From a virus (lineage: Monodnaviria; Loebvirae; Hofneiviricota; Faserviricetes; Tubulavirales; Inoviridae), in IMG/VR virus record IMGVR_UViG_2534681701_000001: a stretch of 7,605 bases of DNA, one strand, 5' to 3'. The position numbers were made by a program. Positions 1 to 3,000 of this stretch are shown here, piece after piece (the stretch's first letter is position 1; the number at the start of each line of letters is the position of its first letter).

Positions 1-3000
1 ATGATTGATGTCTTAGGGCCGGAGAAACGCAGACGGCGTACCACACAGGAAAAGATCGCAATTGTTCAGCAGAGCTTTGAACCGGGGATGACGGTCTCCC
101 TCGTTGCCCGGCAACATGGTGTAGCAGCCAGCCAGTTATTTCTCTGGCGTAAGCAATACCAGGAAGGAAGTCTTACTGCTGTCGCCGCCGGAGAACAGGT
201 TGTTCCTGCCTCTGAACTTGCTGCCGCCATGAAGCAGATTAAAGAACTCCAGCGCCTGCTCGGCAAGAAAACGATGGAAAATGAACTCCTCAAAGAAGCC
301 GTTGAATATGGACGGGCAAAAAAGTGGATAGCGCACGCGCCCTTATTGCCCGGGGATGGGGAGTAAGCTTAGTCAGCCGTTGTCTCCGGGTGTCGCGTGC
401 GCAGTTGCACGTCATTCTCAGACGAACCGATGACTGGATGGATGGCCGCCGCAGTCGTCACACTGATGATACGGATGTGCTTCTCCGTATACACCATGTT
501 ATCGGAGAGCTGCCCACGTATGGTTATCGTCGGGTATGGGCGCTGCTTCGCAGACAGGCAGAACTTGATGGTATGCCTGCGATCAATGCCAAACGTGTTT
601 ACCGGATCATGCGCCAGAATGCGCTGTTGCTTGAGCGAAAACCTGCTGTACCGCCATCGAAACGGGCACATACAGGCAGAGTGGCCGTGAAAGAAAGCAA
701 TCAGCGATGGTGCTCTGACGGGTTCGAGTTCTGCTGTGATAACGGAGAGAGACTGCGTGTCACGTTCGCGCTGGACTGCTGTGATCGTGAGGCACTGCAC
801 TGGGCGGTCACTACCGGCGGCTTCAACAGTGAAACAGTACAGGACGTCATGCTGGGAGCGGTGGAACGCCGCTTCGGCAACGATCTTCCGTCGTCTCCAG
901 TGGAGTGGCTGACGGATAATGGTTCATGCTACCGGGCTAATGAAACACGCCAGTTCGCCCGGATGTTGGGACTTGAACCGAAGAACATCCGTCCTTAAAT
1001 AAGTAACAGCACCCTCTGGTGTTTTCGTATGCAGTGTCTATGCGACAGACACTGCGCTCTTAGCATGGGGCAGGGAATAACCAGGCTATTTCTCCATGCA
1101 CAGGCCAATTATGAAAGAGGAGAGGCTTAAGTTCTTGAACCCTGAACGAATAACGACTACCAGAAAAGCACTTCGCATCACTCAGACATGATTTAACATA
1201 ATATACATTATGCGCACCAATGGTAAGGATGGCAGAATCTGGCGGGAATCGTTGACACTGGCCGTCAACTGGCTACTATCGACAGTGATTCAAAATCATC
1301 CGTTTCTCCAAACGAATCAGAATCAAATGTCTGTCAGCAGTAAGTGAACGGCCTGACCTCACCAATCAGGCCTGTTCATCCAGTTAGTTGGTAAATCTGT
1401 ACCTGATACACGAGAATCAAACACCACTTCTTCAGTGCCATCACCATGATGCCGGATAATCTGGTAACCGGATTGCGGGTTCTGGCTCTCAGCTTCATAA
1501 GCAGCCCGGAATGCTGGATCTTTGAGAAGCATCACTTTCAGCTCCTGATGTGTCATGAATTTTTCCATGATAAGCCCCGATGAATGCTGCCGCGCCGAAT
1601 CAGCCATAACGCTGAAAATGGAAACTGTACGGCTTGGCCAACCCCGGACAGCAACAAAACAAGTTTTGTCACTGACCGGCGTTATCTTTCAAAACAGACA
1701 GTTAACGATTTTTTGTCTGGTGTTTATGCGTGAAATTTCGTGCGTACGAAATTCACCACCAATAAACAAACGGACGATGACTGACCGGAAAAGCAATGCC
1801 GTCAGCATCATGACCACGCATTACCTGATTGAGAAGCCTTCTGACTTCACGGCGCTCAGGCCTGGTCATCATCATATTGCGATACCAGGACGGCGATTTA
1901 TCAAACCATCTGGCACAACTGGCAAAATGTGAACCTACACGACGATAAGACTTAAGGCGGCCACCGGGAAGTCGGTCACGCGCCTTATTTTTTACAGACA
2001 TAATAAATCCTCTAAGTAACTGAATACCTAGAAGATGTCGTACTGTTCATACCCCATAAAAGTTAACGCCATAATAAAAATCCATACAATCAGTTCAGGT
2101 TGTCCCGGAACAGTTCACCGCTCCTCGCGGCGCTGCGGGGCGTCGCCCTGCTCCGGTCAACCTTTCTGACCTGAAGCATCACCATAATATCAGTCTTGTT
2201 GCTTTCACTGGTACGGGAACCGAAGAAGCTCCAGCCGGAACTGGCCTTACTGTCTTTCTGTTCAGCAAGGCCACCAAGTAAAATAATATCACCATCTGCA
2301 AGGCTGACTTCGGTTGTTACATCACGCTTGATAAGGGTTGGCGAGTTATTGACGCCGGTTTCAGTGGTCACAAAGTTGGAAAGCTGCTGCTGAATCTTGA
2401 GATCCATTGTCCGACTTTTGATTGATGGCGTTACGTTAAACAAAACACCGCTGGAACGATATTCAACGGATTGCGTGGTCGTATTGTTATTCACCGTAAC
2501 ACTGCCCAGTACTGGCACATCAGAGCCGACTGAAAAAGACGCTGAGGCATTATTTTTTACCCGCAGTCGTGGCGCACTGACAACAGTAAAACGACTGTCG
2601 GTTTTAAGCAGATTGAAAATGGCATCAATGGAGCCGGTTCGAATATTGATAAAATTATCCAGTCCGGCAGCACCAACTGAAATATTGAATTTATCAGACA
2701 GAATTTTAGCCGCTAAAAGAATGCCGGAGCCGTCAGACTGCGAGGTCTGAACCTCAAAAACATAACCAGAAACAACCACTTCATCACTCATCGTATCCAG
2801 CGAAGTGACCAGTGTTTTCAGGATGGCGATATCCTCTTTCGTACCATAATAAACCAGAATATCACCGGTTCGATTAATGTAGTTGCTTGCCCCTGATGAA
2901 CCTTTTAGCGAATCGTCAGAAATCACGGCTCCACTGTTATTGAAGGAGCCTGAAACGTAGCCGCCAAGAATATCAGACAGGTAGGCAACAGAACGGTACT

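Follow-up and report, generated by a model that had tools for sequence, protein, structure and literature searches.

The 7,605-nt stretch of DNA analysed here (IMG/VR record IMGVR_UViG_2534681701_000001; hereafter the window) carries at 1191-1218 a copy of dif, the target of the recombinases XerC and XerD, with only an IS2 fragment and a chromosomal spacer to its left and the genes of a filamentous phage (inovirus) to its right. The window's plus strand reads ATTTAACATAATATACATTATGCGCACC at these positions, the exact reverse complement of GGTGCGCATAATGTATATTATGTTAAAT, which is tabulated as the E. coli K12 dif by Carnoy and Roten (2009; PMC2731167). Searching with dif gave a 28/28 match on the minus strand, the sole match in the window when up to 3 mismatches were allowed, and since none of 200 dinucleotide-preserving shuffles gave any dif match, a chance origin is excluded. 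The identical 28-mer occurs in strain MG1655 between the yneL pseudogene and hipA (locus L003, 10751-10778). In the window, the XerD arm (1191-1201) lies on the chromosomal side, followed by the central region (1202-1207) and by the XerC arm (1208-1218) on the phage side. Window positions 987-1221 are 100% identical to MG1655 (L003 10547-10781), which places dif in its native chromosomal context on the left. This identity covers the whole of the chromosomal spacer (988-1190) on the XerD-arm side of dif, i.e., the side of yneL and the yde fimbrial genes. An earlier, sequence-only reading had called 1191-1218 an exact dif site abutting a filamentous prophage, and alignment to both MG1655 and the published K12 sequence bore this out.

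On the other side of dif the two sequences part. MG1655 continues 'aatataaaccaagg...' toward hipA, whereas the window continues 'aatggtaaggatgg...', and from 1219 onward it departs from the K-12 hipA-side flank into phage DNA that is absent from the empty MG1655 site. Since homology with that empty site ends inside or at dif, the insertion is precise. The sequence-only reading had allowed that 1219-2089 might prove to be conserved chromosome; instead, this region is missing from the empty MG1655 site, was found in only 120 of 5426 complete E. coli genomes (vs. 3606 for the left flank, 988-1190), and directly follows the phage attachment site (attP) at the junction between tandem phage copies in E. 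coli Z1323CEC0001 (L004). The alignments show that native chromosome extends up to and through the left half of the site and that all DNA to the right of it is phage. The window accordingly holds the prophage-chromosome junction at dif that had been suspected, of the kind made by a mobile, integrative element that exploits Xer (IMEX), with a left side identical to MG1655 and a right side matching the phages CUS-1 and Ypf-phi.

The phage side (1219-7605, minus strand) corresponds to the right-hand 6.4 kb of a CUS-1/Ypf-phi-type inovirus prophage, with 99.4-99.9% identity to the prophages of E. coli UTME-9 (L001), E. coli UTI89 (L002), and Y. pestis NCTC5923. The sequence-only reading placed all phage genes to the right of dif, and all ten credible open reading frames (ORFs) found there lie on the minus strand. 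They form inovirus modules in a single transcriptional direction and in the order seen in Ff and CTX-phi, with Pfam or PHROG assignments for 8 of the 10. Starting from the window's right edge, 7291-7605 encodes the C-terminal 104 codons of a rolling-circle replication protein of the gII/gX type, cut by the window end (Pfam G2P_X_C, E 4e-35); the full protein in UTME-9 has 350 aa and carries both Phage_CRI and G2P_X_C. It is followed by a gene V-type single-stranded DNA-binding protein (6962-7279; Pfam Putative_G5P, E 1e-52), a small membrane protein of the morphogenesis block (6708-6959; phrog_3679, annotated as a membrane protein in UTME-9 and UTI89), and the major coat protein (6440-6673; phrog_2186 virion structural protein, E 4e-29, with a weak Pfam Phage_Coat_B match). 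A pIII-like adsorption protein (4663-6375; phrog_3942, E 8e-252) was assigned on this match and on gene order, as it occupies the position of puvA in CUS-1, whose role is described in PMC4266046. Its ORF could encode 570 aa, vs. 520 aa from the RefSeq start (4663-6225), i.e., it may begin 50 codons upstream, and the PHROG match starts at residue 28, so that the true start is uncertain. Next come a pVI-like minor coat protein (4363-4650; Pfam DUF2523, E 1e-20; phrog_974 minor head protein), a pI/Zot-type assembly ATPase (3334-4359; Pfam Zot, E 2e-26; phrog_197, E 6e-93), and a pIV-type secretin, the phage export channel (2090-3334; Pfam Secretin, E 1e-24; phrog_1012 'protein IV of M13', E 8e-138).

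Two small ORFs of unknown function lie closest to dif. That at 1753-2001 (82 aa), annotated as WP_001399975.1 in UTME-9 and UTI89, had no Pfam or PHROG hit. The dif-proximal one (1359-1607) matched phrog_6642 (E 1e-53) and had no Pfam hit; from its RefSeq start it has 65 aa (1359-1556), and it probably corresponds to one of the two attR-adjacent ORFs of Ypf-phi (PMC4266046). Window segment 1381-1751, which holds this 65- or 82-aa ORF, has no counterpart in the Z1323CEC0001 variant (L004 13161-13595), where a different small ORF is found on the opposite strand. This part of the phage, immediately inside the dif junction, is a slot for variable cargo where CTX-phi has ctxAB. No integrase or recombinase was detected when all window ORFs, together with the other genes of the UTME-9 and UTI89 prophages, were scanned against Pfam and PHROG, nor did this whole prophage gene set yield a match to the XafT/DUF3653 domain.

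Comparison with complete genomes identified the phage itself. From 1191 (987 or 999 in K-12-like backgrounds) to 7605, the window is matched over at least 80% of this length by 85 complete genomes with 99.2-99.9% identity, including UTI89, NU14, F11, and UTME-9. Identity to the UTI89 prophage is 99.8% (1191-7605), and to the Y. pestis NCTC5923 prophage (L048/L049) it is 99.4-99.6% (1204-7605). In the collection of phage records, which contains neither CUS-1 nor Ypf-phi, only the IS2 part of the window was matched. CUS-1 of E. coli O18:K1:H7 and Ypf-phi of Y. pestis share the window's gene order, with nothing of substance different within it; the regulatory/cargo end that distinguishes the two from each other lies outside the window. 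The host flank does differ, being K-12-like with a truncated IS2 in the window and B2-type in UTI89. The window is therefore the dif-proximal 6.4 kb of the known CUS-1/Ypf-phi phage, and not merely similar to it. Ypf-phi of Yersinia pestis was reportedly described by Derbise et al. in 2007, and the CTX-type IMEX CTX-phi of Vibrio cholerae by Val et al. in 2005 and Das et al. in 2010. CUS-1 and Ypf-phi are 99% identical over 7.1 kb (PMC4266046). Ypf-phi inserts at dif and reconstitutes an intact dif at its 3' extremity, beside two ORFs of unknown function; it has inverted XerC/D sites like those of CTX-phi, and its tandem repeats have an imperfect dif at their junction (PMC4266046). The window shares with these phages the intact dif at the end next to two small unknown ORFs, and tandem arrays occur in its relatives (PMC4266046). 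Insertion of CUS-1 at dif goes back to Gonzalez et al. (2002), as cited in PMC4266046 and PMC2731167, and both phages are listed as CTX-type (PMC4246890; PMC3089051).

An integrated IMEX should be bounded by a second dif-like site, for which the sequence-only reading had predicted a conserved XerD arm and a degenerate XerC arm. Within the window, none was found at up to 9 mismatches. However, at the far end of the prophages of UTME-9 (L001 18550-18577) and UTI89 (L002 18588-18615) we found GGTGCGCATAATGTACGACTCGTTATGT, in the same orientation as dif and directly followed by the K-12 hipA-side flank. The second site thus exists in these relatives as foreseen, but the arms were predicted the wrong way round. 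On the phage sense strand the site reads GGTGCGCATAA-TGTACGACTCG-TTATGTTGAAA, i.e., the XerC arm matches at 11/11 and the XerD arm at 9/11 positions, with an 11-nt spacer between them. The 15-mers repeated at the two ends (XerC arm plus TGTA) are 9357 bp apart in UTME-9, 9587 bp in UTI89, and 8849 bp in the Z1323CEC0001 variant. At seven loci (L001, L002, L004, L009, L028, L032, and L043), near-identical prophages lie between dif and a second dif-like site, both in direct orientation.

About 46 nt downstream of the far site lies an inverted partner, GGTTCGCA(T/C)AA-TGACG-TTATGCTAAAG, with a 5-nt spacer. When the 105-nt region containing both was folded as single-stranded DNA, the phage plus strand formed one long imperfect hairpin in which the spacers bulge out asymmetrically between the paired XerC arms and the paired XerD arms, the latter continuing into a GC stem. 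Its minimum free energy was -31.3 kcal/mol (z = -8.6), a stability reached by 0 of 200 shuffles; the complementary strand of the attP region gave a similar fold. Most changes among 20 attP variants affected the apical loop, the central bulge, or the arm derived from the host; a few were seen in the bottom strand and one or two within the GC stem, and the hairpin pair was kept throughout. All spacer variants open with the TGT of dif (TGTATA) and diverge from it further on; TGT(A) is all that the central region shares with dif. For the window's own copy, the order predicted at the far end is GGTTCGCA(T/C)AATGACGTTATGCTAAAG, a GC hairpin, and ACATAACGAGTCGTACATTATGCGCACC.

The far site can also be read in a 6-bp register, as GGTGCGCATAA-TGTACG-ACTCGTTATGT; the XerC arm is then perfect, 4/6 central bases agree, and the XerD arm is degenerate, similar to the description of the TLC-phi attP (PMC4246890). 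We revised this TLC-like reading of the site once we had recognised its inverted partner and the XerD arm, 9/11 and displaced. On the alternative reading, the same prophage would have integrated at dif as a double-stranded replicative form through its single hipA-side site, in the style of VGJ-phi or TLC-phi, and the inverted partner and hairpin would be only a terminator or replication element; a GC-rich stem followed by T-rich sequence could act as a terminator. We consider this route unlikely, because a good XerD arm (TTATGTTGAAA, 9/11) 11 nt from the XerC arm, together with an inverted partner with a 5-nt spacer, reproduces the attP1/attP2 design of CTX-phi, in which the attP1 spacer is 12 bp, the attP2 spacer 5-7 bp, and the two sites are inverted (PMC4246890; sequences in PMC3089051). 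Moreover, all family variants examined retain the partner site, the prophage lacks an XafT/DUF3653-like protein, and the literature puts CUS-1 and Ypf-phi in the CTX class (PMC4246890, PMC3089051).

Tandem arrays tie this attachment region to the DNA beside dif in the window. E. coli Z1323CEC0001 (L004 12962-28449) contains at least 2 tandem copies, joined by ...hairpin-ACATAACGAGTCGTACATTATGCGCACC-aatggtaagg...; in Y. pestis the tandem junction likewise consists of the hairpin, an attP lacking CCATT, and aatggtaagg. The window from 1219 onward is therefore contiguous with attP in the circular phage. Arrays were seen in Z1323CEC0001, in Y. pestis NCTC5923 (L048/L049), and in the IMG/VR loci L030 and L015, with copies joined by attP-type sites and a perfect dif at one end only, where that end was in view. 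The L015 array contains two different phage variants. In E. coli lysogens, the dif-proximal 871 bp occurs at a median of 2 places per genome.

We also surveyed the junctions of relatives across species. One set comprised 39 IMG/VR loci found with the Rep protein; the other, retrieved with a 19-mer from the hairpin, comprised 13 GTDB genome loci, about nine of which carry the attP hairpin; the hairpin-bearing loci include Y. pestis, Photorhabdus, Kosakonia, Pectobacterium, Lelliottia, and Kluyvera. Five of the 13 genome loci were discarded, namely those from Bordetella, Pleomorphomonas, and a soil metagenome-assembled genome (MAG), which were chance 19-mers, and two contigs binned as Candidatus Nanosynbacter (L046) and Ruminococcaceae (L057) MAGs. 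The latter two carry enterobacterial attP, in L057 with a whole prophage and a B2 E. coli flank, and are probably mis-binned E. coli DNA. Wherever the right junction fell within a locus, L031 alone excepted, CCATT preceded a dif that was perfect or nearly so (one mismatch in L026, two in L045), beside diverse host flanks. At the left junction the phage spacer was kept and the XerC arm was host-specific: GGTGCACATAA in Y. pestis and AGTGCGCATAA, AGTACGCATAA, GATGCGCATAA, and GGAGCGCATAA elsewhere. At tandem junctions the phage XerC arm followed CCATT. Host-specific XerC arms at the far junction combined with the phage arm in dif confine the crossover to the stretch between the end of the XerC arm and the fifth central base, and this is the XerC cleavage position described for Xer recombination (PMC4246890). 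The 15-nt core common to dif and attP (XerC arm plus TGTA), which delimits the strand-exchange interval, corresponds to window positions 1204-1218 on the minus strand, and homology of the Y. pestis and Z1323CEC0001 tandem junctions with the window starts at 1204. XerC would cleave the minus strand between 1208 and 1207.

The survey also bears on whether the phage DNA came to lie beside a native dif in this lineage without Xer recombination, either by import of a terminus segment through homologous recombination or by an IS2-mediated rearrangement. A truncated IS2 does lie only 203 bp from dif, no complete genome has the same left-hand structure, and the region is rearranged in other strains, such as ST95-32, where 82 bp of phage lie beside dif. 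Yet the boundary between phage and chromosome falls exactly inside dif and not at IS2, and the identical boundary recurs in many unrelated host backgrounds and species; horizontal import could explain how the strain acquired the prophage, but not how the junction was originally made. We therefore regard this explanation as very improbable. Rather, 1191-1218 is, with high probability, a working dif rebuilt at the junction of a CUS-1/Ypf-phi-type prophage, a CTX-type IMEX without a recombinase of its own.

For such an element the following series of events can be proposed, after the CTX-phi paradigm and earlier published proposals on CUS-1 and Ypf-phi. On the phage plus strand, which is the sense strand of the phage genes and hence the window's minus strand, the attP1-like site (11-nt spacer) and the inverted attP2-like site (5-nt spacer) would pair, and the resulting hairpin would present an XerC arm and an XerD arm around a bulged central region. 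Host XerC, on which integration presumably depends together with XerD, would cut the hairpin and dif alike at the boundary between XerC arm and TGT, and one pair of strands would be exchanged and stabilised by the common TGT(A). Replication would then turn this intermediate into a prophage. At the hipA end, the host XerC arm would be joined to the phage spacer; at the yneL end, the phage XerC arm would be joined to the host central region and XerD arm, giving a perfect dif. The rebuilt site should still resolve chromosome dimers and accept further copies, leading to tandem arrays, while the double-stranded prophage would offer no usable Xer substrate, so that excision by Xer would not be expected.

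Several points weigh against this account or limit it. The far junction and attP hairpin of the window's own genome would lie beyond 7605, and their structure here is drawn from relatives. For CUS-1 and Ypf-phi, a single-stranded substrate, catalysis by XerC only, and irreversibility are proposals based on sequence (PMC4266046, PMC3089051). Since the stems of the hairpin are almost invariant, no compensatory covariation lends the fold independent support, and since the XerC arms of the E. coli host and the phage are identical, the crossover point is unreadable from the window alone. Finally, one locus, L031 (8261-8300), is the sole exception among right junctions: it reads CCATT-GGTGCGCATAA-TGTAAT-AACGTCATCTT, in which the phage XerC arm is joined to sequence other than dif. 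The phage may have integrated there at a secondary site, or the locus may have been rearranged later.

Compared with CTX-phi, the element is likewise an inovirus without integrase that sits at dif, regenerates a working dif at one end, and forms tandem arrays. Both have inverted dif-like sites folding on the plus strand, with spacers of 11 vs. 12 nt (long) and 5 vs. 5-7 nt (short), and in both TGT homology lies beside the XerC cleavage point with none on the XerD side. However, the two are unrelated at the nucleotide level, the sites are separated by ~46 nt here vs. ~90 bp in CTX-phi, and the CUS-1/Ypf-phi-type phage has its own pIV secretin and, in place of ctxAB, the two small unknown ORFs (PMC4266046); unlike for CTX-phi, single-strand integration has only been proposed for CUS-1 and Ypf-phi. 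VGJ-phi is also a filamentous phage at dif, with an exchange initiated by XerC and homology restricted to the XerC side of its central region (PMC4246890). It differs in having one double-stranded 29-bp attP with a 7-bp central region and reversible excision (PMC4246890), whereas two inverted sites are present here and the 11-nt spacer is unsuitable as a duplex substrate. The far junction in the 6-bp register resembles TLC-phi in its good XerC arm and poor XerD arm, but its central region is not identical to that of dif, and no XafT domain was found in the prophage. In TLC-phi, integration reportedly relies on XerD catalysis, which the phage's XafT factor activates (PMC6744903, PMC9226527).

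Insertion of CUS-1/Ypf-phi at dif (published 2002-2007) and the CTX-type attachment site (noted 2011-2014) were already known, and the junction carries little weight as a discovery. Two incidental points are mildly new, namely a truncated IS2 lying 203 bp from dif and clear evidence, from several hosts, that the host's XerC arm is overwritten by the phage; the junction survey across hosts provides a clean sequence-level confirmation of where the crossover lies. As annotation the result is useful: it locates the terminus of replication in the source genome, and 1219-7605 can be labelled a filamentous prophage, associated with fitness, that belongs to extraintestinal E. coli and plague lineages. 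It also implies that the strain retains an intact dimer-resolution site, i.e., a landing pad for further Xer-dependent elements.

It follows from the junctions seen that, on each integration, the phage copy takes the place of the XerC half in the host's working dif. The left junction of Y. pestis (L048 5154-5186) keeps GGTGCACATAA as its XerC arm. For lysogenic Y. pestis CO92, the dif listed begins GGTGCGCATAA..., which equals the phage arm (PMC2731167). The Y. pestis 'dif' recorded in surveys thus appears to be a post-integration hybrid. More broadly, this phage family, which is widespread in enterobacteria, could be actively rewriting and homogenising dif, making dif evolution in Enterobacterales partly phage-driven; we put this forward tentatively, leaning slightly against it. 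If it holds, hosts with an ancestral GGTGCACATAA, AGTGCGCATAA, AGTACGCATAA, or GATGCGCATAA end up using GGTGCGCATAA, and the CO92 dif in surveys is the phage-derived version.

The left end of the window has a history of its own. The IS2 fragment (1-987, plus strand; 99.7-99.9% identity to IS2 copies) consists of insC (1-366) and a 3'-truncated insD (ORF 324-998) and is chromosomal context, outside the phage. The last ~251 bp of its right end are missing, and its interior is fused at 987/988, with a 1-nt overlap, to K-12 position L003:10547. Its distance from dif is 203 bp; yneL, the pseudogene that usually occupies this spot, is missing. The simplest reading is a deletion spanning the right end of IS2 and the adjacent chromosome. 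The IS2/flank junction was not found in the 5426 complete E. coli genomes; JM83 and RM10410 have full IS2 copies nearby, at other positions. The window also contains three FtsK-orienting polar sequences (KOPS; GGGNAGGG), at 1068-1075 (plus), 4129-4136 (minus), and 7018-7025 (minus), vs. 0.4 expected, with at least 3 in 5 of 200 shuffles, a comparison that rests on a small sample. All 3 are oriented toward dif, including the two within the prophage, so the inserted phage puts no wrongly oriented FtsK-loading signal before dif.

Other strains show further variation around the site. In B2 strains the XerD-side flank differs from the K-12 type (UTI89 L002 7336-9000 vs. L001 8804-9191 and window 988-1190), the break coinciding exactly with the outer edge of dif, and 1664 bp encoding a short-chain dehydrogenase/reductase (SDR) oxidoreductase and a hypothetical gene stand in place of 388 bp. 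As to whether this flank is another Xer-inserted element, no dif-like half-site was found at its far boundary. In E. coli ST95-32 (L005 4001-4082), only the first 82 bp of the prophage lie beside dif, joined to lambdoid tail genes, a sign that the terminus has undergone a large rearrangement with one breakpoint within the filamentous prophage.

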